Shown: positions 18,091-45,710, counted from the first letter of the stretch. The stretch: DNA of 61,350 bases from Campylobacteraceae bacterium (GCA_031258205.1 JAIRNE010000010.1:1-61350); one strand, 5' to 3'. Notes: generated by a model from the letters alone, not told the origin. Translations and numbers: made by a program.

Positions 18091-18248
18091 GAAATAAAAC
18101 TCCCGCTGTTTCCATGCACTAACGCTCTTCGCTTGCTGCGGAAGCATAATACCTCCATTTGCCTATTTAATCATTTCTCAAGCCGCCGCCAAGCGTGAGA
18201 TTTGGTATTTGAGCGTTTTTGCAGTTCGCACGGTAAATAAAAATCACA

Positions 18249-18277
18249 TTGACAAATGATAACAAATATGTTATCAT
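18249..18277 (+). promoter_or_regulatory. Sigma70-type promoter TTGACA-N17-TATCAT with an 8-bp perfect inverted repeat operator, for the higBA-like module
   Basis: TTGACA at 18249-18254 and TATCAT at 18272-18277. ATGATAAC-N6-GTTATCAT (18256-18277) overlaps the spacer and the -10. Confidence 0.6.
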
Positions 18278-18307
18278 AAAAGATAATTAAAATTTGGAAA
18301 AGCAACA

Positions 18308-18950: not shown

Positions 18951-19019
18951 ACATATAGAACAGCTTAAAAGGATAGAAATCATACTCTTGTCCTCTCATT
19001 GATACGGTTGGCGCGGTTT

Positions 19020-19235
19020 AGGTCTGGATTGCTTCGTCAGTCGCTTCGCTCCTTCCTCGCAATGACGAAGGAATATGTCATTGCGAGCGCGGCAATCCGC
19101 ACCATGACATTGCACATTCCCCCCCCCTGTCATTGCGAGCAAACACCACCCCGTCATTGCGAGCGACTAACGGGAGCGCGGCAATCCAGCAATGCGAAGC
19201 GTTAATAGACAAACTAAAATAAAATAATTAAAAAA
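19020..19235. repeat. MITE/REP-like cluster with a truncated core A
   Basis: A right arm (19023-19067) is followed by four left arms. GTTAATAGACAAACTAAAATAAAATAATTA (19201-19230) breaks off after ~30 nt. Confidence 0.8.
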
Positions 19236-20847: not shown

Positions 20848-21060
20848 GTTTTATTTTATCTATATTAATAATTCCTCCGGATTGCTTCGTCAGTCGCTTC
20901 GCTCGCAATGACGGAATGGGGGGCGTAATGATGGAATGGGAGAGGCGTAATGAGAGAGGAAGATGGATTGCCACGCTTCGCTCGCAATGACGGAATGGGG
21001 AGGGGCGCGATGACGGAGAGTGAGGCAATGACGGAATGGGGAGGGGCGCGATGACGGAAA
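20848..21060. repeat. Repeat cluster of right arms only, with a partial core B
   Basis: The 3' part of core B (TTTTATTTTATCTATATTAATAATTCCTCCGGATTGCTTCGTC) is followed by CGCTCGCAATGACGGAATGGGG units. AATGACGGAATGGGGAGGGGCGCGATGACGGA is duplicated at ~20986 and ~21026. Confidence 0.8.
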
Positions 21061-27300: not shown

Positions 27301-30300
27301 ATAAACGCTTCCATAAGCGGTGGATTGATAACAAACGGCGAGCAGGTAAGAGAGTTTATAACAGGACCTGTGTATCCTGCAAACTCTAACTTTACGATAA
27401 CTCCTTTTTCTGGCGTTACGGCAGATAACGTTTCGGCTTATACGTTAAGAGTAAATATACAAGACGCTTATCATAATAACAGACCGGGAACGGTAGTTAC
27501 GTTTAACGCCGGGGAGGGTTATTTGAATAACGGCACGAGCGCGCCTAAAACTATCGCATGCACTACCGACGCTAACGGAAACTGCACAGTTACATGGGTA
27601 AGCGATAAGGTAGGAAATTTCTCTGTGAGCGCTCTTGCGGGAATTCAGACGATAGGTCAGCTCCAATACAGAGACTTTGTGCAGGGAGCCGCCGATATTA
27701 CCATGTCAAATCTAACGGTATCGCCTGCGACTTCAAGAATAGCGGATAATTCTACCTATTTTACCGCTGTGGCTCGTATCCAAGACGCTTTGGGACATGA
27801 TGTAACCGGAGAGCTTATCACGTTTAGCGTAACGGGCGGATGGATTGATAACGGCACAAATAAAGGTACAACTCTTACATGCGTAACCGCAAGCGGAATT
27901 TGCACCGTCTATTGGAAAAGCGATACGCCCGGCAATCCTACTATCGTCGCAAATATTACAGCCGGACAAGTAGGCACAGCGCAAAGGCAGTTTATCGCTA
28001 CAAACGCTACTGCCGTTAACTCTACGCTTGAAGTTACGCCGGGTGGTCCCGTTACGGCGGGCACAGGCTCTTATACGGCACAAGTAACGGCGATGGATAA
28101 CGGAGGAGTAGCCGCGCCCGGAGCTGTCATTCAGTTTACGGTAAGCGGCGGAGTTTTGAACTCTGATAGCTGCGAAACTAACTCTTCAGGTCAATGCTTT
28201 GTTACATGGACAAGCAATCAAACGGGTAATTTCTCTATCAATGCGACTATAGCCAGCACAAATATCGGAGGAAACGGGGAAGCTCTCAAAGCCTCTCCTC
28301 AGTACAGAGTATTTGAAGCGGATGTGCCGACAGCCGATAATTCAACGCTTGTCATAACCCCAGCTACAAATACGGTTGTCGCAAACAGCGGTAATTATTA
28401 TACGCTTAATATAACTGCGCGCGATACGCATGGAAACGCTGTCCCTAATCAAACTATGAATATCTATATAGGTTACGGAGAGTTAAATAACGTTACAGAT
28501 TTTCCGGCAGGCAGTTTTACTTCAGGCAACAGCTCATGCCTTACAAACGCTACCGGCGGCTGCTTAGTCGCATGGAGAAGCGATAAGGTAGGCGAATATC
28601 CGGTCAATGTTACTATCGCTGGACAAGGCGGCGTTATATACTCTTCCAACGAAGATAAGGCAAGGAGATTTAGGTACGGCGATGTAGGCGAGGGTAACTC
28701 ATACTTTACGGTAACGAGTTATAACATTTCGCAGCCGGATAATATACCTGTCTGCGAAGAGAGCGAAGACTCTATAAATTTATGCGGTACCTATTATAAT
28801 ATTAACGCTTATATAGAGGATAACAGCTCCAATGCTTATGAGGGCGCAAATGTTACGTTTAGAATATTTAGAGACAATGAGCCTGCGAGAGACGCTTATT
28901 TGAACGATCTAATTACGGACGGTTTCCACGGCAACGAGGCGGCTTCATACTCATGCGTTATGAATGCCACAGGCAGATGCTCTGCAAATATTACGCTAAA
29001 AGCCAATATTGCAGGCACATATCAGATATACGCAAGCGTGGGCAGTACGTACATTAAAGGTTTAAATAACAACGACGACACGAAAGTGGAGAGAACGTTT
29101 GTTGCGGCAAAAGCCTCAAATCAAACTTCTCAAATACATTTTAATCCTAACGCAGACAGGTCGGTAGAGGCAGATAACGTCTCTTACTATAGCGTTACGG
29201 TAGAGGTGTTGGACGCTCACTCCAACCCGATTAACGCCACATTGGTTACGTTAAATGTGCCTGCGACAAGCTGGCTTGACAACTCCACCTCCGTTAGTTC
29301 TTCCGTCTCATGCGTCACCGCAGGCAGCGGCAATTGCTCGGTATTATGGAGAAGCGTGCTTGCCGACAATCCTCAAACTATTACGGCGCAGGTTCAAAAC
29401 ATAACGCTTGAGGGAACAAGAACGTTTTTCACGGGCGCGCCAAGCTCCAATACGTCAAATATTACCGTAAGTTCTCACAACATAACGACAGACGAGAATG
29501 TAACCGTAACCGTAACCGTTAACGACGCCAAAGGCAATCCAATCAAAGAGGTCAATCATAATGTGGTTATCTATACGAGTTTGGGCAACTCCTCATTTGT
29601 AGGAGGCACAGCAGGGCATACGGGAACTTTGACAAACGTCAACGGCACTTATACGGCAGTATTGAAATCTGCCAATATAGGCAATACTACGCTTACATTT
29701 ACGGTGGACAGCGTGCCGAGCGACAATACCGAATGGGTCTATTTCAATTCGGGCAAACCGGACGTAAACGGCTCCAATAATAACTCTTATATCAAAGCCG
29801 TAAGTCCTGTAGAAGTAGGAAACAATTCGTTAGTTACCGTATATATTGGAGACAGCAACTCCAATCCTATAGACAATTTAAGCGTTACTATATATATTGT
29901 AGATAACGCCACAAACAGTTCCGCGCTGATTAACGGAAGCGAGCAGGTTACGATAAACGGCGGAACGGGCGGAAACTATACGGCTAATTTGACCGCTTTA
30001 AATCAAGGAAACGTTACGGTAAGCTTTATCGTAAACGATATACCCGTGAATGCCAACGATGTTGGAAAGAATGCTACCGTTATGTTTAAAACGGGTATTC
30101 CAAACGCCAACAATTCGGATATTTACGTTATTCATGATATAGATAATACCACAAACGCTTCGGCGGACGGCGTAGACTACTATACCGTAACGGTTATCGT
30201 GAAAGACGCCTATAACTCGACCGCTACGAATGGTATAGTTATTGACTTTGAAGTGGACAAAGGCAGACTCTCAGAGGATAATAACACTTTGGGCGCATAC

Positions 30301-31221
30301 CAAACCATTCAATGCACAACGGAAGCCGACGGCTCATGCAAAATATATTGGATGAGCGAAGATTGGGGCAGCGCAAATATCACGGCGTATATAGATGGCG
30401 ATATTGTCAGCGGCTTTCCTATAGAAAGAGTGTTTAGAAGAGTGGTATTTGACGATAATATCACTATCGTAGATTTTGCTCCGTCATCCAAGCGGGTACA
30501 TGTAGGAGACTTGGTAAGATATACGGTTAAGATTGAAAATAATATAGAGCAGGATACGGTATTTAGATTAAATAGCCTTATACCTAAAGGTTTCTCTTTT
30601 GTAGAGGGTTCAATCGTATCAAGTACGGCTAACGGCAGTATAAATTCAACCGTTATAAGCTCTCACGAGTTTGATGCAGAGAATTTGGCTATATACTCCG
30701 GCGGCGAATTGACGGTAGTTTATGTACTAAGAGTAGGAGCGGGAGCTAAAAAAGGAACGCATAAATCATACGTAGAAGCTTTTAAAGCAACAGAATCAAT
30801 CTCCAACAAAGCTTCAACCGAAGTGGAAGTTACGGGAGATCCTATGCTGGATGAGAGTTTGATATTCGGAACGGTTTATGTGGACGCTAACGCTAACGGT
30901 ATGCAGGATGTTGGAGAGATGGGAATCCCCGGAGTTAGAATTGCGACTGTGGAGGGTTACATCATAACGACAGACCAATTCGGAAGATATCACCTCTTGA
31001 ATATACTTGGAGGAGAGTGGGGCATAGGCAGGAATTTCATCATGAAAGTTGATGAGAGTTCGCTGCCTAAAGGTTCTACTTTTACTACGGCAAATCCTCT
31101 TTTGAGAAGATTAACTCCGGGTATTCCTGTAAGGTTTGATTTTGGAGTGAAACTGACAAACGAAGCAAGGAGCATTGAAACGCTCATGCGCTCCTCTGCT
31201 GCCGAAGGAGGTGCACAATGA
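21367..31221 (+). CDS. Giant (3284 aa) secreted surface protein / putative adhesin. Order of parts: N-terminal globular region, SdrD-B/Cna-B-like domain, GEVED motif, ~20 or more bacterial Ig-like (Big_1/invasin-like) repeats, DUF11-like domain, second SdrD-B-like domain.
   Basis: An uninterrupted 9.85 kb ORF with the RBS GAGGGG 8 nt upstream. Signal-like ...ITLSFIGAAVLSTSAYA|A. GTVYNDADGDGVISGSEAGISGLTVQLY and GTVYVDANANGMQDVGEMGIPGVRI are SdrD-B-like. DGEVEDYQVYV is the GEVED motif. The ~95-aa repeats follow the pattern Y.V.V...D..GNP......V.F.....G.L... Confidence 0.85.
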   Translation: MSELKSYPFSIGYFFKKVLFSGFLKKTSFSISCFLKSALFSGFPKRTLFSIGCLKKITLSFIGAAVLSTSAYAATWNCNYLYISGSSIMSFNPANGAINTQDVGYGAATIALGPVAGNMNMLRMRYWNYGGGTIYYSDSGATSWTNSGLSSDFLGTSLTNGGEINQLTAEIYITGAASNDDAYTGTSTSSTGSFRIGVYSPPYGTANRRVSPVITPGISYAVASDMAIDADGNAYILARYSGTSYSLIRINMKDQNGNFLPTPWYGTAIKTGIILSSASSYSGIWGMAFLNGKLYFTRSDDLYSLDPLTGAVATVRTDLPGSSPYDLASCQVAPIVRGTVYNDADGDGVISGSEAGISGLTVQLYSAAGSLLSTATTATDGTYSFIINNSNNADFYIRVKQPSINGIHAAQTWASGGTFTDRDSKINTVYNYCTDFTNDDTTGSSQNRTCYGARADGVDGAANGIAGVANYYSRVHVTTSLAVSRADFAFSTASDRSDSNINEVLHNTAIKTTGNSLRAYLGANVSTDAASIQSQTADSDSYDDGLYVLLNGRYVPVQQRGFVQNRNYNFRANINGSKKSDAKLSVFQTPQTSVSWSSLGAADLTGSGNYITFTGALTAAPGANSIIRARYSTSAGLTATANASTNAADPWVLDGEVEDYQVYVVDRQIKLALKTVGTSGNSGNLTFTMTNMHTTSPSSASAVISTDAPDVVTDEPIGKTHRINTANSPVSITVDKPQNLGIITSETTCVDLTDSSNVPLTFSRYQSGGKWYDNVTIAATSVKADSDIACTFAYGVAPAINVTANITLRAFANDQFNLSIADTNASSILTSNVSTGTNTAVSVSTVLAADHNNTVSVSMAGGSTSPLSRYALVAICDGVQQTVTNGAFSVSPTFGQTVNCSVTVSTSSVHTGYSGIVVIPHSNVVGNSSLVLITLKDANNVTIPSGGDNVTVFIASQSTNGASRLSNGTHTVTDGVNIRAIDHHNGSYSLNLTSNSTGNGTISFYVNGVLSANGGAYQFYAEEPDVNSTNTTIQIPSPNVGVSQNATAWIRVVDKYNNPVTNATVALYTVSTTTGGSPVLYNANVHNFNNGTYNVNLTSVLQGNVTVGMSINQVTVNPAGQYKNATARFLATNYNATGNYTTIKAEPNSTNAGNTSLVTVYLADNDNNSIDGRNVIIYVNSTNAANAIITPTPATGLGGGLYSATLTSNVSDNYTVTFRVDSNISNKSANVLFTVNPPKLDNKTLSYIDATNVVPAGSNSTIKVYLADEYNNSIKNATVSVRVLENDSGSFVPAGSNNSIAYTADSSDPKGGYYRVIYSTVTAHNVTFGFSANGVLAPESNNDTTTFTSGDVDLTHVNTTFAVTPHETDIEKNVTLRVHLVDNLSNVRASENVTFVVVGATFENGTAASLATINLIGSVTNHGNGTYTQNASTSVAQNVTFSFEVEGIGDGVSVGKTDWAKFKSAGWDISHVNTTITATQSVEVNSNSTVTVTLVDNKNNPVNNESVTIVRLSGAGGTFYPADAIVTQDGTGNGKYTARFTTPTAGNVTFGFVVGGNSNNSKNASTIFRSGQPNSTTSELTFNPPTASVSVEENYTVIAAIKDKDNNPISGTTVNFRVNGGALNAQTCQTGLDGRCSVIWTSTVTGDFTINATIGTLTNHIKNSPADRTFTAGLANETTSTFLLEPGPKTVGQSFNMNATLRDRFGNAIPNQLVFYSVEPAIAGAGFGAVGVETDSENKTTGSIARSDNTFWSNIAGSYKITVRFGSATGPEISGSNQTAVFIPAPANQYTSNLTVTGAGPVDSAGGYYTVRAYAKDNIGPNAVPNVNFNIAVTNGTLSNGTLSGKNIVCTTNAAGYCEFLWSSPSEKGVFTVTAAFTNGTAISGSPQTREFISGDANTTNSQLVIQEAGPKTANGTDRYTAVITLRDGSNIPTAGSVLVSVTGGLLDGAYTSQSYGVDNTTGSVTLYWSSFDANNFTINASISGGLITNGEQVREFITGPVYPANSNFTITPFSGVTADNVSAYTLRVNIQDAYHNNRPGTVVTFNAGEGYLNNGTSAPKTIACTTDANGNCTVTWVSDKVGNFSVSALAGIQTIGQLQYRDFVQGAADITMSNLTVSPATSRIADNSTYFTAVARIQDALGHDVTGELITFSVTGGWIDNGTNKGTTLTCVTASGICTVYWKSDTPGNPTIVANITAGQVGTAQRQFIATNATAVNSTLEVTPGGPVTAGTGSYTAQVTAMDNGGVAAPGAVIQFTVSGGVLNSDSCETNSSGQCFVTWTSNQTGNFSINATIASTNIGGNGEALKASPQYRVFEADVPTADNSTLVITPATNTVVANSGNYYTLNITARDTHGNAVPNQTMNIYIGYGELNNVTDFPAGSFTSGNSSCLTNATGGCLVAWRSDKVGEYPVNVTIAGQGGVIYSSNEDKARRFRYGDVGEGNSYFTVTSYNISQPDNIPVCEESEDSINLCGTYYNINAYIEDNSSNAYEGANVTFRIFRDNEPARDAYLNDLITDGFHGNEAASYSCVMNATGRCSANITLKANIAGTYQIYASVGSTYIKGLNNNDDTKVERTFVAAKASNQTSQIHFNPNADRSVEADNVSYYSVTVEVLDAHSNPINATLVTLNVPATSWLDNSTSVSSSVSCVTAGSGNCSVLWRSVLADNPQTITAQVQNITLEGTRTFFTGAPSSNTSNITVSSHNITTDENVTVTVTVNDAKGNPIKEVNHNVVIYTSLGNSSFVGGTAGHTGTLTNVNGTYTAVLKSANIGNTTLTFTVDSVPSDNTEWVYFNSGKPDVNGSNNNSYIKAVSPVEVGNNSLVTVYIGDSNSNPIDNLSVTIYIVDNATNSSALINGSEQVTINGGTGGNYTANLTALNQGNVTVSFIVNDIPVNANDVGKNATVMFKTGIPNANNSDIYVIHDIDNTTNASADGVDYYTVTVIVKDAYNSTATNGIVIDFEVDKGRLSEDNNTLGAYQTIQCTTEADGSCKIYWMSEDWGSANITAYIDGDIVSGFPIERVFRRVVFDDNITIVDFAPSSKRVHVGDLVRYTVKIENNIEQDTVFRLNSLIPKGFSFVEGSIVSSTANGSINSTVISSHEFDAENLAIYSGGELTVVYVLRVGAGAKKGTHKSYVEAFKATESISNKASTEVEVTGDPMLDESLIFGTVYVDANANGMQDVGEMGIPGVRIATVEGYIITTDQFGRYHLLNILGGEWGIGRNFIMKVDESSLPKGSTFTTANPLLRRLTPGIPVRFDFGVKLTNEARSIETLMRSSAAEGGAQ

Positions 31222-34200
31222 GAAAGAGTATTAAACTCAGCGCCTTAGCGGCGGCTTTGTTGATAGGTTCTATGCCGTTGAATGCGGCTAACGAGGCAGA
31301 TAATGACATCATTGTAGCGACGGACAATCAATCTTTAGAGCCCAAATCGGTTATCATACAGACAGAACCTGATTTAATCTCTTTGATTGAGAGTGATGAC
31401 AGTCTATTAAATGACGAGGCAGACAGCGATATTGTCATTATTGCACAGACAGAACCGTCTTTAGTTTTGCCTGAGAGCGATAAAGACGATGATGGTCTGT
31501 TGAATAACGAGGCAGACAGCGACATTGCCGACGAACAACCTTTAGAGCCTAAATCGGTTATTATACAAACAGAACCGTCTTTAGTCTCTTTGCCTGAAGA
31601 GGAGGGCGATAAAGACGATTCTAATGCGCTCAATAGTCCGTTTGCCGACAATGTCAAAGCTCCTTTGATATACCCAAGCGCCTATTCGCTTCAGCTTCCA
31701 AATAACGGTTTAATATGGATATCCGAAGACCCCAACATGGGCGAGACGTCTTTGAATGCCGTCAGCTTGTCGTTTGTCTCTGCAGAGAATGGACAGCTTA
31801 GCGAAAGTTTGGATTTTTATATCAGGACAAATTATGCGGCTTTTATAGACAAATTAGAGATATCTATCTATAGAAGCGCGGATAAGGATTTCATAGAGCC
31901 TTTGGCTGTACTTAACGCAAATCCAACATCTTTTACAAGGATAAGATGGGACGGCAAACTGCCCGATAAATATACTTATCAAGCGGGAGACGAGTTGGTT
32001 TACGTATTGAGAGCTTACGATAAAGACGGAAGGTTTGACGAAACAACCGCTAAAACAATCTCTATTCTTAGAAAAGAGGATGTAAAAGAGGCTAAAGACG
32101 AACTGAGAGTTCGTATCTCAAAAGAGCAGGGCATATTAATAGACGATAACGAAGCCGCCGTCATGCAGTATCTGCTAAACGAAGCGTTTGGCAGAAACGC
32201 TATAAGCAAGCGAAATATCGTTACGTACGGTTCAAAGATTATCTTAAGAGGCGTTAATATCCCTAAAGACACCGTTCTTTTGATTAACTCCGAGCAGTAT
32301 CCGATAGACTTTGAGAGAAGATTTACCGCCGAATATATAATGCCGGTAGGAACTCACTCTTACGATATAGCTCTCATCGGAGCGGAGAATACGCAAGGAC
32401 GCTTAAGCTTAGAGGTCTCTCCGTACTACATGTTCGGTATGGCTATAGCCGATATAACTATAAGCAAATCGGACGTAGGCGACAGCGAATTGAGAGGAGA
32501 TGACGACGAAGACGTATTAGAAGAGGGCAGATTGGCTTTCTATACGAAAGGCAAGTTATACGGCAAATACAATTTTACCGCCCAAGCGGATACTACTCAA
32601 AAAAGTATCAATAAGCTCTTTTCAGGATTTACGCAAGCGGACGCAGGGGATTTGTTTGAGACGTTAGATCCGGACATGTACTATCCTACTTACGGCGACG
32701 ACTCTACCGTGTTTAAAGACGTAAACACTCAAGGCAGATTTTATGCGAAAGTAGAGTGGGATAAGAGCGAAGCTTTGTGGGGCAACTACGACACCGGCTT
32801 TAGCGGTACGGAGTACGCCGCGTATTCAAGAAGTTTGTACGGAGCAAAGCTTGATTATAAATCTTTGGATATAACTCCTTACGGAGAGTCTAAATTAAAC
32901 GTAAAACTATTCGGTTCAGAAGAGGTCAGCGCGTTAGGACATAACGAATTTTTGGGAACGGGCGGCAGTTTATATTATCTGCAGCACATGGATATACTGC
33001 CCGGTTCAGAGAAGATATCGCTGCGCGTAACGGATACTTTGACGGGCAATACGATAGCAAAAATAGATTTGAATAACGGTATAGATTATGAGATAGACAA
33101 TATACAAGGAAGGGTGATTTTGACCCGACCTTTGTCTCAAATCATTTACCAAAATGTCAATACTATAACAATCACATCGCCTCTAAGCGGCTATGAACAG
33201 AGATTGATAGTAGATTATGAGTATGTCCCAAGAGGATTTGAGGGAGACACTCTCACGGGCGGCGTAAGAGCTAAACAGTGGCTTAACGATTATATAGCCG
33301 TAGGCGGAACATACGTAAGAGAAGAGAAGGGAGGCTATAGCGACGACTATCAGATAGCGGGGGGCGATATAACTTTGCAGGTGGGCAAAGGAACGTATAT
33401 AAGAGGCGAGATTACAAGAACGGAGTCAAACGCGGGCTCTATATTCTACTCTGATAACGGAGGTCTTAGCTTTACCGATATAAGAGATAACTCCAACGCT
33501 ACCGGCGGCAACGCTATATCTGTTGATGCGAGAGCAAACTTCAAAGAGCTCGGAATTGTAAATAACGAATTTACAATGGGCGGCTGGTACAGAGATACTC
33601 AAAGCGGATTTGCCACAACGGCTTCGACGCTTGCTTTTGGCGGCATAACCGAGTACGGAGCCGAGGCTGCGGCGGAGATTACAAACAGTATAAGCATATA
33701 TACAAAAGTAAGCGAGAGCAAAAAGAAAAGCGACGACAGTTCATACTCCGAAGCCGCCGTAAAAGCTTCGTATAAAGCCGCTGAGAAATTGACGCTAAGC
33801 GCAGAGGCGGATTACAGGCAGACAGAGCGTAATGCCACTTCAAAAGTACATGGAGCGGTAGGAGCTTTAAGAGCCGATTATGATATCACTCCAAATCTTG
33901 AAACATATCTGACCGGTCAATTTATGATAAACGACAACAGCGGTCAATATGAAAACAATGACGCCGTTATCGTGGGCGCGAGATATATTCTTAACGGTTC
34001 AAGTTTAGAGGGACGATATATAACGGGACATAGAGGAGAGTCTTTAGGTCTTGACGTCTCTCATGAGCTCAATAAAGACCATACGGTATATGCGGGCTAC
34101 ACTTACAGCGCAGAGGGATATTCAAGCGATAATATATTCAATTCGCAAACGGGTACAGGTTTTACGGTAGGTCAAAAGTGGAGCGTTACGGATAAGATAA

Positions 34201-35081
34201 ATCTTTACAACGAGTCACAGCTGCTTAGAAACGGAAACTCAAGAGGAAACTCAAACTCCTTAGGTATGGATTTTTACCTTGGAGAGGGTTGGAATATGGG
34301 ATTTTTATACCAGCAGGGAGCTCTTGAATCAAGCGGGGGAGAGACTACCGACAGAGATGCATTCTCTTTCAGCGTGGGTCAAACTTCAAGCGTTACTAAT
34401 TGGCTAAGCAAATTGGAATACAGACAAGACAGGGGACATGAGGAGAGAGAGCAGTTTTTGACTACAAACAGAATCTCATACAAATGGAACGATTCTCTAA
34501 GTTTTGCCGGAAAATTCAACTACGCTAAAACAAAAGACGATAAAAACGCTCAAAATCAAGCGGAGTTTACGGAGTTAAACACAGGCTTCGCATACAGACC
34601 GTTTGATTCCGGTAAATTGGCGTTCTTTGGAAGATTTACCTATCTTTACGATATGTCTCCAGAACAGCAGATAGACTATACCAGTTTGTCAGGCAGTTCT
34701 TATGACCAAAAGAGTCAAATCATCTCGCTTGAGGGAGTATATAAATATGACGCCAAATGGGAGTTTGCTCTAAAATACGCTCAACGGTTCGGAAAAGTTA
34801 AATATGACGGATTGGAAGAGTGGTTTGATTCCGAGACTACTTTTTATGCGGGACAAGTCAGGTATGACCTTATTTATGATTGGCATGCTCTCGTAGAGTA
34901 TAGAGTTCTTGACGTAAAAGACGGAGGCAATAAAGAGGGATACATGGTGGGTATAGATAAAGATATCACCAAAAACTTCAGACTCGGCATCGGTTATAAC
35001 TTTACCGACTTCTCTGACGATTTGAGAGTGTTGGATTATAAGTCGCAAGGCTGGTTCCTAAACGCGGTAGGAACATACTAA
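31218..35081 (+). CDS. Large (1287 aa) predicted outer-membrane protein, translationally coupled to the giant surface protein
   Basis: The ATGA start/stop overlap at 31218-31221. Signal peptide MRKSIKLSALAAALLIGSMPLNA|A. An acidic repeat region. The C-terminal ~700 aa has alternating aromatic and small residues typical of beta-barrel strands, and the protein ends ...GWFLNAVGTY. Confidence 0.7.
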   Translation: MRKSIKLSALAAALLIGSMPLNAANEADNDIIVATDNQSLEPKSVIIQTEPDLISLIESDDSLLNDEADSDIVIIAQTEPSLVLPESDKDDDGLLNNEADSDIADEQPLEPKSVIIQTEPSLVSLPEEEGDKDDSNALNSPFADNVKAPLIYPSAYSLQLPNNGLIWISEDPNMGETSLNAVSLSFVSAENGQLSESLDFYIRTNYAAFIDKLEISIYRSADKDFIEPLAVLNANPTSFTRIRWDGKLPDKYTYQAGDELVYVLRAYDKDGRFDETTAKTISILRKEDVKEAKDELRVRISKEQGILIDDNEAAVMQYLLNEAFGRNAISKRNIVTYGSKIILRGVNIPKDTVLLINSEQYPIDFERRFTAEYIMPVGTHSYDIALIGAENTQGRLSLEVSPYYMFGMAIADITISKSDVGDSELRGDDDEDVLEEGRLAFYTKGKLYGKYNFTAQADTTQKSINKLFSGFTQADAGDLFETLDPDMYYPTYGDDSTVFKDVNTQGRFYAKVEWDKSEALWGNYDTGFSGTEYAAYSRSLYGAKLDYKSLDITPYGESKLNVKLFGSEEVSALGHNEFLGTGGSLYYLQHMDILPGSEKISLRVTDTLTGNTIAKIDLNNGIDYEIDNIQGRVILTRPLSQIIYQNVNTITITSPLSGYEQRLIVDYEYVPRGFEGDTLTGGVRAKQWLNDYIAVGGTYVREEKGGYSDDYQIAGGDITLQVGKGTYIRGEITRTESNAGSIFYSDNGGLSFTDIRDNSNATGGNAISVDARANFKELGIVNNEFTMGGWYRDTQSGFATTASTLAFGGITEYGAEAAAEITNSISIYTKVSESKKKSDDSSYSEAAVKASYKAAEKLTLSAEADYRQTERNATSKVHGAVGALRADYDITPNLETYLTGQFMINDNSGQYENNDAVIVGARYILNGSSLEGRYITGHRGESLGLDVSHELNKDHTVYAGYTYSAEGYSSDNIFNSQTGTGFTVGQKWSVTDKINLYNESQLLRNGNSRGNSNSLGMDFYLGEGWNMGFLYQQGALESSGGETTDRDAFSFSVGQTSSVTNWLSKLEYRQDRGHEEREQFLTTNRISYKWNDSLSFAGKFNYAKTKDDKNAQNQAEFTELNTGFAYRPFDSGKLAFFGRFTYLYDMSPEQQIDYTSLSGSSYDQKSQIISLEGVYKYDAKWEFALKYAQRFGKVKYDGLEEWFDSETTFYAGQVRYDLIYDWHALVEYRVLDVKDGGNKEGYMVGIDKDITKNFRLGIGYNFTDFSDDLRVLDYKSQGWFLNAVGTY

Positions 35082-37497: not shown

Positions 37498-37500
37498 TTG

Positions 37501-38598
37501 ATGAAATTTAACGAAACGCTTGAAAAATTAGTAAATTACGAAGCGGGCAAGCCGATAGAGCTTGTCGTAAGAGAATACGGCATAAATGCTTGCGATGTGA
37601 TAAAAGTGGCGAGTAACGAAAACCCTTACGGATGCAGCCCTAAAGTAGTCAAAGCGATACAAAACGAAGCTTTTAAAATGTCTTTGTACCCGGACGACAG
37701 CATGTACGAATTAAAAGCCGCGCTTGCCGACAAATACGGAGTTGGAAGTGAAAATATCATTATAGGTTCAGGCAGCGACCAAGTGATAGAGTTTTCACTG
37801 TTTGCGAAAGCTAATGCGTCCAATAAAATTTTAATGGCGAAAACAACATTTGCCATGTATGAGATTTACGGCAAACGCACAGGCACGACCGTGCTGAAAA
37901 CATCTTCGCATGGACACAATATAGAAGAGTTTTTAGATGTTTACAAGAACAATAAAAATATAGCCGTTATATTTTTGTGCCTGCCCAATAATCCGCTTGG
38001 AGAGTGCTTGGATAAAGATGAGGTTTTCGGATTTTTAAAAGAGGTCTCAAGCGATACTTTGGTCGTGATAGACGGAGCTTATCAAGAGTTTGCGGGTTTT
38101 AAAGATAAAAATAAAAAGATAGACCCAAAAGAGCTTATAGACAGATTTCCCAACGCCATATATCTTGGCACATTCTCAAAAGCTTACGGACTTGGCGGAA
38201 TGAGAGTGGGATACGGCGTGGGAAATAGAGAAATTGTCAAATCTTTGCACAAACTCCGTTCGCCTTTTAATATCACTACTTTAAGTCTTAAAGCCGCCAT
38301 AGAGGCGTTAAAAGATGAAGAGTTTGTAAAAAATACGGTTATTAAAAACTTTGAAGAGATGGCAAGATATGAGGAATTCGCCGAAAAACTTGATATTGAG
38401 TTTATCCCAAGCTATACAAATTTTATTACGTATAAAGTCCAAAAAAACTCGTCTTTGATTTGCGAAGAGCTCATGAAAAAAGGAATCATCATAAGAGACC
38501 TTAAAAGCTACGGTTTAAACGCCGTGCGCATTACGGTAGGCACAAAAGAGCAAAACGACAGGCTGTTTAAAGTTTTTGAGGATATTTACAGAGGCTGA
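37501..38598 (+). CDS. hisC: Histidinol-phosphate aminotransferase
   Basis: [15 protein letters not shown], and [15 protein letters not shown] with the PLP lysine. I used the ATG at 37501. The track starts 3 nt earlier at a TTG. Confidence 0.9.
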
Positions 38599-38601
38599 AA
38601 C

Positions 38602-40416
38602 TTGGATATAAAAAACTTCAAAACCGAAGAGTTAGAAAATTTATGCGGCGAGATACGCGCGAAGATTATTGAAGTCGTGAGCCGCAACGGCGGGCATCTT
38701 AGCTCCAACATGGGCGCGGTGGAATTAATAGTTGCCATGCATTATGTATTTGACGCCAAAAACAACCCTTTTATATTTGACGTCAGCCACCAATCTTATG
38801 CGCATAAACTTTTAACCGATAGATGGGATAAGTTTGATACTTTGCGCCAAATAGACGGCATCAGCGGTTATACAAAACCGTCTGAGTCGCCGTACGACTA
38901 TTTTGTGGCAGGACACAGTTCCACCTCTATCTCTTTGGCTGTAGGTGCGGCTAAAGCTATCAAATTAAAGGGCGAAGACCGCGTACCGGTAGCTTTGATA
39001 GGAGACGGCGCAATGAGCGCTGGAATGGCGTATGAAGCGTTAAACGAACTTGGAGACAGAAAATATCCCGTTGTCGTAATACTTAACGATAATGAGATGA
39101 GTATCTCAAAACCCATAGGAGCCATCAGCAAATATCTCTCTCAAGCGATGGCGGGACAATTTTATCAAAAATTTAAATCCAGAGTGGAAAAGGTATTGGA
39201 TTATCTGCCTGAATCTGCCATGTACATGGCAAAGAGATTTGAGGAGGGGTTTAAGCTGATAACTCCGGGAATGCTTTTTGAAGAGCTTGGATTGGAGTAT
39301 ATAGGACCCATCGACGGGCACAATCTGCCCGCTCTCATCAGCGCTTTAAAAACGGCTAAAAAACTAAAAAAACCCGTTATCGTACATGCACAAACGATAA
39401 AAGGCAAAGGTTATATAAAAGCTGAGGGGCAGTTTGAAAAGTGGCATGGAGTGTCGCCTTTCAATGTAGAGAGCGGCGAGAGTATTTCAATAAAAACGTC
39501 AAAAAAGAGCGCGACCGCGCTTTTTAGCGAAGCGCTTTTGGATTTGGCGAAAGCAAAAGAGAGTGTCGTAGGCGTAACTGCCGCTATGCCGAGCGGTACG
39601 GGCATGGACGAATTGATAAGAGAATTTCCGGATAGATTTTGGGATGTAGCGATTGCCGAACAGCATGCGGTAACGTCCATGTGCGCAATGGCAAAAGAGG
39701 GTTTTAAACCTTTTGTCGCGATATATTCTACGTTTTTACAGCGCGCTTACGACCAAATCATACATGATGCCTGTTTGATGAATTTAAATGTTGCATTTGC
39801 AATAGACAGAGCAGGTATTGTCGGAGAGGACGGAGAGACGCATCAAGGAGCTTTTGATATATCATACCTGAATGCCATACCAAATATCACGCTGTTTGCG
39901 CCAAGAGACGACATCGGCATGAAATACGCGGTAGAGTTTGCTTATGAGCATAAAGGCGTATGCGCGTTTAGATACCCAAGAGGAAGTTTTATCTCCTGCG
40001 GAAAAGTGAAATCAAAACCTTTTTTATTGGGACAGGGCGAAATTTTACATAAAGGCGAAAGCGATACGGCGTTTATAGGATACGGTAATGGCGTTGGGAA
40101 AGCGCATGAGTGCGCGAAATTTTTAGACGAAGATATTACTATAGTTGATTTGAGATTTGTCAAGCCGATAGATAAAAGGCTTTTAAAGCAACTTAGCCTC
40201 ACATGCAAGAGGTGGTATATATTCAGCGACAGCGCAAAAAGCGGCGGTGTGGGCGAAATATTGTCGGGTTTTTTAAACGAAGAGGGGATAAAAGATGTAA
40301 CCCTCAAGAGTTTTGAATATAGGGATATTTTCATACAGCATGGCGATACGGCGAAAATAGAAGAGCGGCTCGGACTCTCCCCGAAACTGTTAGCCGAAAA
40401 AATCAGCATATTATGA
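38602..40416 (+). CDS. dxs: 1-deoxy-D-xylulose-5-phosphate synthase
   Basis: GGHLSSNMG, DVSHQSY.HK, the ThDP motif GDGAMSAGMAYEALN, and IAEQHAVT. TTG start. Confidence 0.93.
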   Translation: MDIKNFKTEELENLCGEIRAKIIEVVSRNGGHLSSNMGAVELIVAMHYVFDAKNNPFIFDVSHQSYAHKLLTDRWDKFDTLRQIDGISGYTKPSESPYDYFVAGHSSTSISLAVGAAKAIKLKGEDRVPVALIGDGAMSAGMAYEALNELGDRKYPVVVILNDNEMSISKPIGAISKYLSQAMAGQFYQKFKSRVEKVLDYLPESAMYMAKRFEEGFKLITPGMLFEELGLEYIGPIDGHNLPALISALKTAKKLKKPVIVHAQTIKGKGYIKAEGQFEKWHGVSPFNVESGESISIKTSKKSATALFSEALLDLAKAKESVVGVTAAMPSGTGMDELIREFPDRFWDVAIAEQHAVTSMCAMAKEGFKPFVAIYSTFLQRAYDQIIHDACLMNLNVAFAIDRAGIVGEDGETHQGAFDISYLNAIPNITLFAPRDDIGMKYAVEFAYEHKGVCAFRYPRGSFISCGKVKSKPFLLGQGEILHKGESDTAFIGYGNGVGKAHECAKFLDEDITIVDLRFVKPIDKRLLKQLSLTCKRWYIFSDSAKSGGVGEILSGFLNEEGIKDVTLKSFEYRDIFIQHGDTAKIEERLGLSPKLLAEKISIL

Positions 40417-40888: not shown

Positions 40889-40978
40889 CTTTAAACAGTT
40901 TTAAATAGTTTTAGTACGTTTTTTTTCATAGATATTTAAAATATTTTATGCAATAATGGAATATTTATAAGGGATAAC

Positions 40979-41824
40979 ATGAAAGAGCAAGTTCAGATTA
41001 ATAGGAAAAATCCTACGGCGTTTTTGTTTGTTGTAGATCAGTCGCTTTCTATGGGCTATGTAATGCCTTCCGTAAATAAGCCCAAGGCTAAACATGTGGC
41101 GGATGTTATCAATAGAACGATTTTAAACTTAATAGATTTATGCAATAAAGCGGACGGTATCAGAGACTATTTTTATATAGGCATTATCGGTTACGGCGGG
41201 AAGGGCGTTAAAAATATACTTTTTGACGAAGAGGATAGACCGATTTTAAATTTTATCTCCGAAGTAGCCGACAATGTAAAAAAGATAGAGCGGTTAACCG
41301 AAAAGGTAGATAACGGTCTTGGCGATATCGTAGAGAGAACGGTAGAGTTTCCCGTATGGATAGAGCCTGACGTGGACGGCGAAACTCCCATGTGCGAAGC
41401 TTTTAGTTTAGCCAGAGAGACGCTTAAAGAGTGGTGCGCGAATAATCTAAACTCTTATCCGCCGACATTGATACATATCACGGACGGCGATTCTACGGAC
41501 GGAGATCCTGAGGAGATAGCCGAAGATATCAAAAAACTTCGCACGCTGTGCGGCAGCGCGCTTGTTTTCAATCTGCATGTAAGCTCGTTTGATACAAATA
41601 CGATAGAGTATCCGTTCAGCGACAACAACATAAAAGACGAATATGCAAAAATGCTTTTTAGAATGTCCAGTATTTTTCCCGAGCATTTGATAGGCAAAGC
41701 AAACGACAGAGGATATAGAGTAGTGGACAATTCAAGGGGTTTTATATTTAATGCGGATGCCGTAGATATCGTAAATTTTCTCGAAATAGGCACGCTGCCG
41801 ACAAACCCGTACAAAAAACGATAA
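40979..41824 (+). CDS. von Willebrand factor type A (vWA) domain protein, TerY/YegL-like
   Basis: The MIDAS motif DQSLS sits in FLFVVDQSLSMG. The second and third MIDAS elements are GETPMCEAF and LIHITDGDSTDG. 281 aa with no signal peptide. Confidence 0.8.
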   Translation: MKEQVQINRKNPTAFLFVVDQSLSMGYVMPSVNKPKAKHVADVINRTILNLIDLCNKADGIRDYFYIGIIGYGGKGVKNILFDEEDRPILNFISEVADNVKKIERLTEKVDNGLGDIVERTVEFPVWIEPDVDGETPMCEAFSLARETLKEWCANNLNSYPPTLIHITDGDSTDGDPEEIAEDIKKLRTLCGSALVFNLHVSSFDTNTIEYPFSDNNIKDEYAKMLFRMSSIFPEHLIGKANDRGYRVVDNSRGFIFNADAVDIVNFLEIGTLPTNPYKKR

Positions 41825-41836
41825 GGCAGTCGTTTA

Positions 41837-42568
41837 ATGGAGCTACTGTTTTGCGGCTCAATACCTAAAAATTATGATAGACCTTATGAAAATGAGGATT
41901 GTTATAATATAAACATGATAAATCAAACTTTGCGCGTAGCCGTCAGCGACGGCGCGAGCGTTTCGTATGATTCTAAAAATTGGGCAAAAAATCTGGCGGA
42001 TTGCTTTGTGCAAAAAGAGTTTATTTTAAGCAGGGATATAAACAGACTTATTAAAAGTTACTATTCCAACCGTTTTGATTTTAAAAATTTGACGCTTTTC
42101 CAAAAAAGAGGGCTTAGATTTGGGAGTTACGCCACCATACTCGGACTTGAGTACAATCCAGTTTCAAATTTTATACAAGTTTTAAGCGTAGGAGACAGCG
42201 TTGCGGTTTTTTTGGATAATGATAAACTTATAGACTCTTTCCCGTACTCTTTATCTGTTGAATTTAAAAAAAATCCAAAACTGTTGAGCGTGAAAAAGAG
42301 ATATAACTATTTTTTTTCACGCTCCAAAGAGTATGATAGATTTTATAGAGTCTGGAATCTCAAAACCGCGCATCGTCCGACAGTTCTTTGCATGACAGAC
42401 GCGCTTGCCGAGTGGGCGTTCAAATCTTACGAGAGCGGCAATACGGATACATGGAGAGAGATAAGCTCTATTAGCTCAATGAAAGATTTTAAGAGTTTTG
42501 TGGACGCTAAGCGTTTGGAAAATAGTATCAAAGTGGATGATACTACGCTTGTTTGCATAAGATTTTAA
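41837..42568 (+). CDS. PP2C-family Ser/Thr protein phosphatase-like protein
   Basis: NEDCY...VAVSDGAS..., SVGDSVAVFL and LCMTDALAEW resemble PP2C metal-binding Asp motifs. It starts 12 nt after the vWA gene. Confidence 0.65.
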   Translation: MELLFCGSIPKNYDRPYENEDCYNINMINQTLRVAVSDGASVSYDSKNWAKNLADCFVQKEFILSRDINRLIKSYYSNRFDFKNLTLFQKRGLRFGSYATILGLEYNPVSNFIQVLSVGDSVAVFLDNDKLIDSFPYSLSVEFKKNPKLLSVKKRYNYFFSRSKEYDRFYRVWNLKTAHRPTVLCMTDALAEWAFKSYESGNTDTWREISSISSMKDFKSFVDAKRLENSIKVDDTTLVCIRF

Positions 42569-42577
42569 AGGAAAAAA

Positions 42578-44650
42578 ATGTCGTTAAATTACCCAAGTTC
42601 GCATGATTACAGAGCCGCTTTTCAGCATATACGACAGAATTTAACAGATCCGATTTTGCAAGAGGGCATAGTTAAGACCAACTCGTTGGGACCGCAGATT
42701 TTCAGCGGCAATTTCGCTTACGCGTATGAAGTTACTTCTCAATACAGGATAAAATACGCCGTGCGTTGTTTTCGTTATTTTTCAAAAGACCGCGAAGAGC
42801 GTTACGCGGCGATAGCCTCTTTTTTGAAACGGCTTAGATCTTACTATTTTGTAGATTTTGAGTATCAGCCTGAGGGAATTACCATACGCGGCATTAAATA
42901 TCCGATTGTGAAAATGGCATGGGTGGACGGCGATTTGTTGGGGCAGTTTATAGCCGAGAATTACACCAACAGGCGAAGGCTTAAAAATCTCATAAGTTCG
43001 CTCATCGCGCTTGCGAGATTTATTGAACAGCACAATTTTGCGCACGGAGATATACAGCCCGGAAATATAATAGTCAATAACGACGGCAAGGATTTGAAAG
43101 TTATAGATTATGACGGCATATATGTAAAAGAGATTAATGAGCTTGGCAATTGCGAGTGCGGCACGCCGAATTTTCAGCACCCAAAAAGAGGCAATACATG
43201 GAGCGCGAAGTTGGATAGATTTTCGTTTATATCGCTTTATGTCGCCTTGAATGCGCTTGTGGAACGCTACTCTTTATGGGAGGAGTTATCCTGCGATACC
43301 GAATCCATTCTCTTTGTGGCGGCAGATTACGAGGATACCAAACATTCAAAAGCTTTCGCTAAGATTATGAGTATTGAAAATATGAAAGACGATGCACAAA
43401 AGTTTAAAAGGGTATGCGACGCTTCTTTTGATAAAATCCCCTCTCTTGACGATTTTATTGAGGGGAAAAATGTCCCGAATTATTACCGCACAAGTAAATT
43501 TGTCTATTTTGCGGGCGCAATTATTGCGCTGATGTTTTGTACGGTGTATTTTTTAGAGCGCGGCTATACGGTGAATACGATATATGCCAAAATATTAGAG
43601 GCAAAAGAGTTTTTCGCGGGCAAAAAAGAGGAGGTTAAGAGTGAAGAGATGCACGCGAGAGTTAGTTTGCGCACAAGCAGGGATTATGCGGATACTATCA
43701 AACAGCTTGACGATTTGCACGCTAAACTGCCCAACGACAACGATATAACTCTGCTTGCCGCCGCGACATACGCCATAAGCGGTTACGACGATGATAAACT
43801 CTCAACGCTCACAGAGTCTTTGTTGGGGCAAAAGATTGACGATTCAAGGCTCTATTTTGCTCTTGCCGCGCTGTATTGGCGCAGAAACGATATAGAAAAA
43901 GCAAATTATTTCATAGATTTGACAAATAACGATATACGTATGGATGATAAATTAAGAAATATGATTGTGCCGCTGCGCGCTATTTTGAAAATGGAATTAA
44001 ACATGTACAACCGCTATAAAGCAGACGCGGGATTTGGCGATAAAGATAATGAAATATTTGCCGCCGCTATGCCTTTGTGGGAAGATAGCAAGTCGGCGTA
44101 TGAGTATTTCATGCAGATTTATTCGTATGGCTTTACGGGTTTTTCCAGTGAGTATCCGCTTAGCTTGACATATCAATCTTTTGCCGAATGGTTTGACGCT
44201 TATGCAAATTATAAAATCGGCAAAAATTTAAAAACGCTGATGGATTTGCATAAAAAATACCCCGAAAATGCAGAACTTTTATACCGCATCACAATTGATA
44301 TCGCAAATCTTTATATAGAGGGCAGCGAAGGCAGATGCTATTTTCGCCGCGATAAATATCTGAAAATTATCAGAGAGATTAAATACGAACCTTCAGCCAT
44401 TAACGCTCAAAAAGCTGTTGATTTTGCGAAAAAACTGGTAGAATTGCCATATTCTGCGCCAAAGAGTTATTACGCGCTTTCTCTCGCTTATTACGCGAAC
44501 GGTGAATTTGACATCGCCGAGGGCATTGCAAATATAGCCAAAACAAAAATAACAAACAGCGATCCTGTAGAGGTGAAAAAGCGCATAGAGACGCTTTTAG
44601 GAAATATAAACAGCAGTATCTCATGCAGATTGAAAAGCGGCGCGGAATAA
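42578..44650 (+). CDS. Membrane-anchored Ser/Thr protein kinase-like protein with a C-terminal TPR-like helical repeat domain
   Basis: Catalytic loop FAHGDIQPGNIIV, metal-binding KVIDYDG, and FQHP in the activation segment. A single TM helix FVYFAGAIIALMFCTVYFL lies at aa ~305-325. The ~360-aa alpha-helical C-terminus is rich in A/Y/L. It starts 9 nt after the PP2C gene. Confidence 0.75.
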   Translation: MSLNYPSSHDYRAAFQHIRQNLTDPILQEGIVKTNSLGPQIFSGNFAYAYEVTSQYRIKYAVRCFRYFSKDREERYAAIASFLKRLRSYYFVDFEYQPEGITIRGIKYPIVKMAWVDGDLLGQFIAENYTNRRRLKNLISSLIALARFIEQHNFAHGDIQPGNIIVNNDGKDLKVIDYDGIYVKEINELGNCECGTPNFQHPKRGNTWSAKLDRFSFISLYVALNALVERYSLWEELSCDTESILFVAADYEDTKHSKAFAKIMSIENMKDDAQKFKRVCDASFDKIPSLDDFIEGKNVPNYYRTSKFVYFAGAIIALMFCTVYFLERGYTVNTIYAKILEAKEFFAGKKEEVKSEEMHARVSLRTSRDYADTIKQLDDLHAKLPNDNDITLLAAATYAISGYDDDKLSTLTESLLGQKIDDSRLYFALAALYWRRNDIEKANYFIDLTNNDIRMDDKLRNMIVPLRAILKMELNMYNRYKADAGFGDKDNEIFAAAMPLWEDSKSAYEYFMQIYSYGFTGFSSEYPLSLTYQSFAEWFDAYANYKIGKNLKTLMDLHKKYPENAELLYRITIDIANLYIEGSEGRCYFRRDKYLKIIREIKYEPSAINAQKAVDFAKKLVELPYSAPKSYYALSLAYYANGEFDIAEGIANIAKTKITNSDPVEVKKRIETLLGNINSSISCRLKSGAE

Positions 44651-44688: not shown

Positions 44689-45237
44689 ATGCGGCAGACA
44701 AAAGCGATAAAAGCTTCAAAATTGTGGAAAAGCGCAGATATAACTGCCGCTTTTGACTCTTCGCCGATTAAAAAAATAAGTCAAGAGTGGATAGCCTTGA
44801 GCGCGGGTACGAAAGACGACTATAATGTCATGACGGCGTCATGGGGAGGGATTGGGTATCTTTGGGAGAGAAGCGTAGCTATAGTTTATGTGCGTCCTGT
44901 TCGCTATACGTATGATTTTATGGAAAAATCTGACTTTTTTACGCTTACGTTTTTTGACAAATCTCTAAAGGCTAAAGCGCATAAGATTTTCGGCAGCAAA
45001 TCGGGACGCGATATAAATAAAGCCAAAGAAGCAGGCGTAACGGCTGTGTATTTTGACGAAAACGCTATAGGTTTTGAAGAGGCAAAAGAGACGGTAGTCT
45101 GCAAAAAGATATATTTTAACGACTTTAATCCGCGTAACTTTTTGGATGCGCAGATAAACGATCTTTATCCCGACAAAGATTATCACAGAATATATATCGG
45201 CGAGATAAAAAAATTTTATAAAAAAACGACAGCATAG
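44689..45237 (+). CDS. Flavin reductase-like (FMN-binding split barrel) family protein
   Basis: LSAGTKDDYNVMTASWGGIGYLWERSVAIVYVRPVRYTYDFME.SDFFTLTFF. The ATG at 44689 follows AAAGGAG. Confidence 0.7.
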   Translation: MRQTKAIKASKLWKSADITAAFDSSPIKKISQEWIALSAGTKDDYNVMTASWGGIGYLWERSVAIVYVRPVRYTYDFMEKSDFFTLTFFDKSLKAKAHKIFGSKSGRDINKAKEAGVTAVYFDENAIGFEEAKETVVCKKIYFNDFNPRNFLDAQINDLYPDKDYHRIYIGEIKKFYKKTTA

Positions 45238-45351: not shown

Positions 45352-45710
45352 ATGTCATCGTGAAAAAACAATCCGCCGCCATCTCCGTCATTGCGAGCGA
45401 GATAAAATTTCAACTATACGTCATTGCGAGCGACCAACGGGAGCGCGGCAATCCAGCAATACTAAAAAACTTTAAACTTATTCTCATGTAAAAACAAAAA
45501 TACTAACTGTTTTTATTTTATCTATATTATCAACTCCTCTGGATTGCCACGTCGCTTCGCTCCTCGCAATGACGGAGAGAGGGGAGGTTACTTCGCCGCT
45601 GTGTTCCCATAATGATAAAAAAAGGAGTATTCCAGCAATGACGGAATGGGGGGCTCGCAATGAGGGGGGGGGACACAATGACAGACAGAAAGAGGGTTTG
45701 TAATGACAAA
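45352..45710. repeat. MITE/REP-like cluster (core-B element 45419-45575 plus degenerate arms)
   Basis: Left arm CGTCATTGCGAGCGACCAACGGGAGCGCGGCAATCCAG, core B 45461-45538, and right arm CTGGATTGCCACGTCGCTTCGCTCCTCGCAATGACGG. Confidence 0.85.

Follow-up and report, generated by a model that had tools for sequence, protein, structure and literature searches.

A probable TerY-P-family cassette with a predicted membrane-spanning, TPR-like kinase C-terminus at the perR locus of uncultured Campylobacteraceae

The cassette and its signalling core

Three co-directional genes follow perR in the stretch of DNA analysed here, a 61,350-nt sequence from a Campylobacteraceae bacterium (GCA_031258205.1 JAIRNE010000010.1:1-61350) that we refer to as the window. 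They encode a TerY-type von Willebrand factor A (vWA) protein (40979..41824, + strand, 281 aa), a Ser/Thr phosphatase with a PP2C/PPM fold (41837..42568, + strand, 243 aa), and a protein kinase (42578..44650, + strand, 690 aa). A first-pass annotation, made by inspection of the DNA, had described these genes as a triad of TerY-P gene content with intergenic gaps of 12 and 9 nt; the open reading frames (ORFs) lie exactly where it placed them, and all three products match the TerY-P models of PADLOC. We are highly confident that the triad is a variant of the TerY-P family, and it is the C-terminal half of its kinase that makes it a variant.

The related records are metagenome-assembled genomes whose isolate names suggest termite-gut samples, and they represent an uncultured Campylobacteraceae lineage. 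Those whose dxs is 75% or more identical are treated as one clade; the closest sequences outside it are from Campylobacter species, at 71%. The triad is found after a lysA-pheA-hisC-dxs-perR block in 10 related loci, and it occurs in two forms. In form A (the window and L002-L008) it directly follows perR, whereas in form B (L009-L011) perR is followed by a sulfatase-family gene, the triad, and then ahpC-fdx-ndk, with a CAP-family gene before ahpC in L009. The gene order vWA-PP2C-kinase is the same in 10/10 related loci examined and in Pseudomonas, which is the outcome that the annotation had looked for in its proposed check of co-occurrence and order. Intergenic spacing is at most 12 nt, or the genes overlap, in the clade loci, and is 5 and 9 nt in Pseudomonas.

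Within the window, the 12-nt spacer between the vWA and phosphatase genes reads GGCAGTCGTTTA, and the 9-nt spacer between the phosphatase and kinase genes, which contains an AGGA ribosome-binding site, reads AGGAAAAAA; a scan found no terminator-like sites between the three genes. Upstream of the vWA gene lies a promoter-like conserved block of 35 nt (40923..40957, + strand), comprised of a -35-like TAGATA, a 17-nt spacer, and an extended -10 element, TGcAATAAT, and a promoter scan returned a match at 40929-40957 that includes the TG. This block is almost unchanged across five aligned form-A loci, and the remaining spacer has diverged. The upstream motif is present as a single copy in the window, against 0 expected, and occurs once each, at the same place, in L001, L002, L003, L005, L007, and L008 and nowhere else among the 20 loci; it was not found 5′ of the form-B triad. 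Given the tight spacing, the absence of internal terminator-like sites from the scan, and the conserved upstream block, the triad reads as one operon with its own promoter, and the block may additionally contain an operator. A further ORF of 182 aa (44689-45237, + strand) begins 38 nt 3′ of the kinase gene on the same strand, and its one match, to Flavin_Reduct, is weak (E 5e-5 in a longer 204-aa reading). We left it out of the cassette because in L002, L005, L007, and L008 the first ORF of at least 100-120 aa past the kinase gene is on the opposite strand and of another size.

The vWA protein matches the PADLOC TerY model over its full length (1.7e-103) and scores 25.1 bits (2.8e-5) with Pfam VWA_2, slightly under the gathering cut-off of 27. 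The residues of its metal-ion-dependent adhesion site (MIDAS), D20-x-S22-x-S24, T136, and D169, do not vary among eight homologues, one of them from Pseudomonas, and a hydropathy scan of the protein found no hydrophobic or transmembrane segment. These results agree with the earlier description of a cytoplasmic vWA protein with an intact MIDAS, and a cytoplasmic location is what the hydropathy of the protein predicts.

A TerY-like vWA protein with an intact MIDAS could also speak for a metal or tellurite (Ter-type) stress sensor, in which a metal or metalloid would be detected at the MIDAS and the signal passed on by the kinase and phosphatase. The triad has been hypothesized to be such a metal-sensing, phosphorylation-dependent switch in a passage of PMC11090510 that cites Anantharaman et al. 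(2012). For the window cassette we consider this reading very unlikely. Among 37 of the 44 window ORFs of at least 100 aa, Pfam scans identified no TerD, TerZ, TerC, or TerB, in keeping with the view of the triad as stand-alone, and there are no ter genes among the Pfam-assigned genes of the related loci. Moreover, vWA MIDAS sites usually serve protein-ligand binding and not metal sensing, and stand-alone TerY-P acts against phage, as discussed below.

The phosphatase gives a strong match to the PADLOC PP2C model (8.1e-67) and a weak one to Pfam PP2C_2 (E 0.038). Searches of the PDB with alignment profiles of the vWA and PP2C proteins returned nothing meaningful, and the PP2C fold was therefore established by structure prediction and structural comparison. 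The AlphaFold2 (AF2) model of the phosphatase, computed from a 48-sequence alignment, has a predicted local distance difference test score (pLDDT) of 95 and a predicted template-modelling score (pTM) of 0.91. Its top 50 PDB matches in Foldseek are all PPM/PP2C proteins, with template-modelling scores (TM-scores) up to 0.61, and include PPM1K, Stp1, PstP, tPphA, and PppA. All 48 homologues share the metal-binding residues D38, D120, D188, D234, and D235. As far as model and conservation allow a judgement, the small PP2C-like phosphatase named by the annotation is an active-looking enzyme.

Residues 1-300 of the kinase (42578..43477, + strand) form a Hanks-type Ser/Thr kinase domain of the TerY-P subfamily. 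Pfam Pkinase is matched with 32.6 bits, just over its cut-off, and PADLOC STK_OB with 2.8e-111, over profile positions 2-340 of 562 only. The motifs HGD158IQPGN163 (catalytic loop; H156), D177-Y-D179-G, and TPNFQHP are invariant in 18 homologues, and the catalytic core can be aligned to that of MEK1/2, so that the conserved residues present an active-looking, Hanks-type kinase. One family-wide peculiarity is the segment K-Y-A-V-R-C-F (residues 59-65, window 42752-42772), which replaces the β3 VAIK lysine of Hanks kinases and is invariant in every TerY-P kinase examined, including that of Pseudomonas. By eye, it places an arginine at the canonical lysine position and a lysine four residues upstream.

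The searches with family hidden Markov models that the first-pass annotation had proposed thus came out unevenly: Pkinase was over its cut-off and the PADLOC matches were strong, but VWA_2 and PP2C_2 stayed under their Pfam cut-offs. NCBIfam had no name for any of the three cassette proteins. The two sub-threshold Pfam scores are the point in favor of a coincidental adjacency, or of a decaying remnant, and we give either of these next to no credence. Order and tight spacing are kept from Campylobacterota to Pseudomonas, the catalytic and MIDAS residues are invariant, and confidence in the AF2 models is high. No vWA or PP2C reading frame is broken in the loci examined, and 18/18 full-length kinase homologues are intact (674-692 aa, 97-100% of the query aligned). 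Coincidental adjacency is refuted by these conservation data.

The kinase C-terminus

The annotation correctly recognized a 690-aa kinase but overlooked that it is not of the standard form, as residues 300-690 consist of a transmembrane helix and an all-alpha, TPR-like domain of ~360 aa. The only Kyte-Doolittle peak in the protein is at residues 305-327 (43490..43558, + strand), right behind the kinase domain, and corresponds to its sole predicted transmembrane helix; the TPR-like domain, identified with AF2 and Foldseek, spans residues 330-690 (43565..44650 with the stop codon, + strand). In a standard TerY-P kinase, an OB-fold region and a Ser/Thr/Pro-rich linker follow the kinase domain, and the protein ends in either a transmembrane anchor or a CFI-box; in a few of these kinases a late transmembrane helix is followed by a small extra domain. 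No OB fold was found in the window kinase, whose match to STK_OB extends no further than position 340 of the 562 in the profile.

To place this architecture, we surveyed the 120 best kinase homologues, made up of 18 clade members and 102 others. A transmembrane helix immediately behind the kinase domain is present in 18/18 clade members and in 0/102 of the other TerY-P kinases. The latter fall into 64 with a CFI-box C-terminus, 26 with a transmembrane helix in the C-terminal tail, seven with a late transmembrane helix and an extension, and five with none of these. A late or terminal transmembrane helix is accordingly found in 33 of the 102 non-clade homologues, and membrane tethering is a trait of the TerY-P kinase family.

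The AF2 model of the C-terminal domain, computed from an 18-sequence alignment, has 16 helices (pLDDT 83, pTM 0.77). Foldseek matches it to generic TPR superhelices only (consensus TPR proteins, LbcA, OGT, and Naa15), with TM-scores of 0.2-0.3, and residues ~607-651 fit the consensus TPR sequence. When a profile of the domain was searched against 1.84 billion representative proteins, it found two full-length matches only. One, P0012, is a form-B kinase, and the other, P0241 (461 aa), we interpret as a fragment of a kinase of that family; the remaining matches are weak, partial TPR hits. Among these 1.84 billion representative proteins, the TPR-like domain is confined to this kinase family. A specific structural homologue was rejected on the same grounds, and because the structural matches are generic and the domain has no relatives outside the family, no ligand can be inferred from them.

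The C-terminal domain also evolves faster than the catalytic domain to which it is joined. Within form A, identity is 59-77% in the TPR-like domain versus 80-92% in the kinase domain, and between forms A and B it falls to 30-35% versus 58-64%. Such fast C-terminal divergence is what one would expect of a surface that binds ligands in a conflict system. The C-terminal domain contains only two cysteines, C587 and C683, and both are invariant across forms A and B. Given that the kinase domain needs cytoplasmic ATP and that the cysteine pair is invariant, we infer that the kinase domain is probably cytoplasmic and the TPR domain probably periplasmic, where a C587-C683 disulphide probably stabilizes it.

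Presence, absence, and replacement at the perR-ahpC gap

Counted as kinase clusters, there are at least 18 triad-bearing relatives, and a dxs-anchored survey identified at least five relatives that lack the triad at the same locus. In L018 and L022 (dxs identity to the window of 78% and 76%) perR is followed directly by ahpC; in L019 (76%) a DNA-alkylation-repair gene stands between the two, in L017 (84-85%) a CAP gene, and in L016 (84%) a sulfatase pseudogene and a CAP gene. Comparison of L016 with L009 reveals a clean 3.8 kb indel that corresponds to the triad and its upstream spacer (L009 8242-12052), with no remnants. As the triad is present or absent at the same locus, once by a clean indel, it can be described as accessory, a cassette that occupies a perR-ahpC gap of variable content. 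The first-pass annotation had suspected an accessory acquisition, and the relatives with the identical lysA-pheA-hisC-dxs-perR block but no triad confirm the accessory status.

The gap gathers varied accessory genes, namely sulfatase, CAP/PR-1-like, and DNA-alkylation-repair genes. The sulfatase-family (PF00884) gene between perR and the triad is located at 6633-8243 in L009 and at 6626-8224 in L010, and its counterpart in L016 (10394-11997) is frameshifted, appearing in tblastn as two segments in different frames. In Campylobacter iguaniorum, dxs and perR are followed by unrelated genes. The same species has fliF-fliG-fliH between hisC and dxs (L020 3486-6999), while in the window (37498-40416) and all termite-gut relatives examined hisC is directly followed by dxs, the flagellar genes having been moved or lost from the locus.

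The genes of the locus do not share one history. By dxs and hisC, the window is 84-85% identical to form B and equally close to L002, with L005, L007, and L008 more distant (75-80%). In contrast, perR, vWA, PP2C, and kinase all place the window beside L005, L007, and L008 and leave form B as the outgroup, with form A versus form B identities of 63-65% for vWA, 52-55% for PP2C, and 45% for the kinase. The locus thus reads as a mosaic whose history switches between dxs and perR, with cassette trees that are incongruent with those of the flanks. The divergence of perR tracks lineage and not the triad: L016 and L017 have no triad, yet their perR is L009-like, and for this reason perR divergence is no evidence of a functional link between perR and the cassette.

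The simplest reading of these data is a single TerY-P acquisition, as the transmembrane-TPR kinase is common to forms A and B, followed by remodelling of the kinase C-terminus and by divergence, exchange, and loss of the cassette within the clade. The nearest kinase domains outside the clade are gamma- and betaproteobacterial, at ~47% identity. Carriage by plasmids was considered and rejected, with two distant cyanobacterial plasmid matches (34-42% identity) as the only ones found.

Composition provides no signal of a foreign origin, which was rejected on this count. The cassette had looked AT-rich to the annotation, but its GC is 0.403 versus 0.414 for the window, and the GC, GC at third codon positions, and codon-usage distance of its genes are within ~1 standard deviation of the other 34 genes, with the exception of the PP2C gene (GC 0.369, ~-1.7 standard deviations). 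Nor does the cluster of miniature inverted-repeat transposable elements (MITEs) noted at 45.35 kb support acquisition. The repeat core TCATTGCGAGCGA has 33 matches in the window versus 1.9 expected, often as inverted pairs, in eight clusters (100-860, 7645-7987, 9883-10414, 16964-17204, 18016, 19053-19166, 20899-20990, and 45388-45663), and it looks like a genome-wide element of the repetitive extragenic palindromic (REP) or MITE type. Because the repeat is dispersed across the window and not specific to the cassette, the cluster at 45388-45663 is uninformative on the cassette and was rejected as an insertion scar.

Several of these features would also suit a domesticated transmembrane signalling module in place of a defence system. 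Its receptor-type kinase would detect an envelope or redox cue in the periplasm, for example peptide or protein ligands or oxidation of the cysteine thiols, and with the PP2C and the vWA protein as adaptor would control a housekeeping response, in the manner of PknB/PstP or PrkC/PrpC, perhaps one tied to the adjacent perR-ahpC peroxide regulon. The predicted order of kinase, transmembrane helix, and extracytoplasmic sensor is the layout of classical bacterial receptor Ser/Thr kinases, and the two invariant cysteines, predicted to be periplasmic, could form a redox sensor. The cassette lies between perR and ahpC in form B and directly after perR in form A, it keeps to one locus in 18 kinase clusters, its composition is host-like, its promoter/operator block is strongly conserved, and no mobile-element or defence genes adjoin it. 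We nevertheless judge such a module to be rather improbable. Five close relatives (dxs 76-85%) are triad-less at the same locus, one of them by a clean cassette-sized indel, so the cassette is dispensable; its history is incongruent with that of the flanking genes; and the presumed sensor diverges far faster than the kinase domain, while all three proteins belong to a family validated as anti-phage. A link to PerR through the upstream block received no support, as the ahpC promoters and the form-B loci do not contain the motif and it recurs nowhere else in the 20 loci. Finally, given that the perR-ahpC gap holds unrelated accessory genes, the position of the cassette is better explained by a variable hotspot than by a functional link.

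Elsewhere in the window, a giant adhesin ORF (21367-31221, + strand, 3284 aa) contains six Invasin_D3 and six Big_1 Ig-like repeats together with SdrD_B and SpaA_3, and its first 3 kb have the highest GC of the window (0.44-0.51). It is overlapped by 4 nt by an ORF of 1287 aa without a Pfam match (31218-35081, + strand). A low-GC patch at 16000-19200 (0.36-0.38) holds a Fic/Doc-family gene (17543-17932) and a Gp49/HigB-like toxin gene (18308-18679), is bracketed by repeats, and is probably a small toxin-antitoxin island; it is compositionally more foreign-looking than the TerY-P cassette. Two Campylo_MOMP porin paralogues (8347-9540 and 19385-20548, both + strand) lie 10 kb apart, and each adjoins repeat clusters.

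Proposed function and relation to known systems

The TerY-P triad was defined by Anantharaman et al. (2012), as recounted in passages of PMC11090510 and PMC4978471. Its role, which the first-pass annotation still held not to be established, has since been addressed: according to the accounts of Gao et al. (2020) in PMC7699616 and PMC11090510, stand-alone TerY-P with an OB-fused kinase is a validated anti-phage system that acts on T7-like phages. The TerY-P system of P. aeruginosa protects against Autographiviridae at low and high multiplicity of infection, and most infected cells survive (10.1101/2022.08.12.503731). In P. aeruginosa/paraeruginosa the triad encodes proteins of 277, 237, and 558 aa, matches that of the window in order and spacing, follows ligA, and adjoins a resolvase and a phage-type integrase. 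Identity of the window proteins to this triad is 50% over 272 aa for vWA, 32% over the full length for PP2C, and 47% over residues 3-299 for the kinase, and by these comparisons all three are orthologous to the stand-alone TerY-P defence system that PADLOC models (Gao-type, with an OB kinase).

The window cassette shares with stand-alone TerY-P the three genes, their order and tight spacing, strong PADLOC matches, the absence of ter genes, and a membrane-associated kinase. Unlike in stand-alone TerY-P, its kinase lacks the OB fold and instead continues from the kinase domain through a transmembrane helix into a TPR-like domain of 360 aa. Standard cassettes also occur in islands flanked by integrases or resolvases, whereas the window cassette is in a chromosomal gap after perR without mobility genes. 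Phage defence in the TerY-P family is known from OB-type systems only, and the window form is known from its sequence. By analogy with these systems, we lean toward a role of the triad in defence against phage or mobile elements.

How such a defence might operate is suggested by the altered kinase. We propose, at a probability of roughly one in three (0.3-0.35), that the cassette is an outside-in immune receptor, in which the TPR domain would detect a phage component, or the envelope breach at genome ejection, before or during entry of the genome and signal by Ser/Thr phosphorylation to the cytoplasmic vWA effector. The TPR solenoid would bind a protein or peptide ligand in the envelope or periplasm, for which a phage ejection or tail protein or an envelope-damage product formed at genome ejection are candidates, and the bound ligand would activate the kinase domain, most likely by oligomerization and autophosphorylation. 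The activated kinase would phosphorylate the vWA protein and possibly other targets, and phosphorylation would switch the metal-dependent binding of the MIDAS to a phage or host factor, thereby blocking infection. The PP2C phosphatase would hold this switch off in uninfected cells and reset it afterwards. Relative to the standard arrangement, in which a cytoplasmic OB fold is tethered by a C-terminal anchor, sensing would have been moved across the membrane.

A number of observations weigh against the proposed defence role or against its outside-in form. Defence activity is here extrapolated, as the defining OB fold is absent, and the phage-protection experiments on TerY-P concern OB-type systems, none of them from Campylobacterota. 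Literature searched under the names of the system yielded no mechanistic study of TerY-P, OB-type included. Both the topology and the disulphide are predictions that draw on hydropathy and conservation only. The cassette is kept in most sampled clade members, at one locus and beside the peroxide regulator perR, which fits domesticated signalling too. Its composition is fully ameliorated, and it is surrounded in the window by housekeeping genes, with no other recognizable defence gene and no integrase flanking it.

The basic finding is an ordinary one, given that the system type is known and is annotated by standard defence finders, and its practical impact is moderate, the organism being uncultured. 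In the literature searched, however, neither the transmembrane kinase with a clade-restricted TPR domain nor the gain, loss, and replacement at the perR-ahpC gap is described. Although the signalling core of vWA, PP2C, and kinase domain has been conserved, the presumed sensor has changed, which singles out the kinase C-terminus as a specificity determinant. If the outside-in reading is true, the OB fold, the zinc ribbon of the TerY-P kinases discussed next, and the TPR domain would be interchangeable sensor cartridges, and their comparison would reveal what TerY-P detects. The perR-ahpC gap itself offers a small natural case of defence-cassette gain, loss, and replacement at a fixed site without visible mobility genes.

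A second setting in which TerY-P is found is CoCoNuT (Type II / III-A, McrBC-related). The kinases there carry a zinc ribbon at the C-terminus, and the triads are embedded in large McrBC-like / CnuH-CnuE operons that also encode McrB/McrC-like proteins, helicases, HEPN proteins, and nucleases (PMC11090510). CoCoNuT TerY-P and the window have in common the vWA, PP2C, and kinase genes and the MIDAS motif. Pfam scans of the window found none of the CoCoNuT partners (McrB, McrC, helicase-HEPN, nuclease) beside the triad, and the window kinase has no zinc ribbon, as there are only two cysteines in its C-terminal domain. Such CoCoNuT-type triads are present in other Campylobacterota, namely in an H. 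pylori island and in Sulfurimonas (PMC4978471, PMC11090510).

The E. coli yegL-pphC(yegK)-yegI cluster, which the annotation had treated as equivalent, encodes the same three kinds of protein, but similarity is remote and orthology was rejected. BLASTP aligns the kinases at 26% identity over 68 aa (E 2e-4) and the vWA proteins at 36% over 47 aa and finds no match between the phosphatases; hhalign gives a probability of 0.2% for PP2C and of 86%, for a partial alignment, for vWA against YegL. YegI is an inner-membrane kinase with DSD, a DxD variant of DFG, and PphC is a characterized PP2C-like phosphatase (10.1101/819920, 10.1101/303594). The window kinase has DYD where YegI has DSD, and it has a single transmembrane helix. 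In E. coli K-12 the yeg cluster is interrupted by yegJ. It is a remote analogue only.

In its predicted layout, the window kinase resembles the receptor Ser/Thr kinases that work with PP2C phosphatases (PknB/PstP, PrkC/PrpC, StkP/PhpP, and PpkA/PppA), which share the order of kinase domain, transmembrane helix, and extracytoplasmic domain. For the window kinase the helix and domain order are predicted, and the orientation is deduced from the need for ATP and the cysteine pair. PpkA, of the P. aeruginosa type VI secretion system, also joins a kinase with a vWA domain. The window system differs from PknB- and PrkC-like kinases in having no PASTA domains in Pfam scans, a TPR-like solenoid as sensor, a kinase domain of the TerY-P subfamily, and a separate vWA protein. 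Its likeness to the receptor kinases is therefore one of working principle and not of membership.

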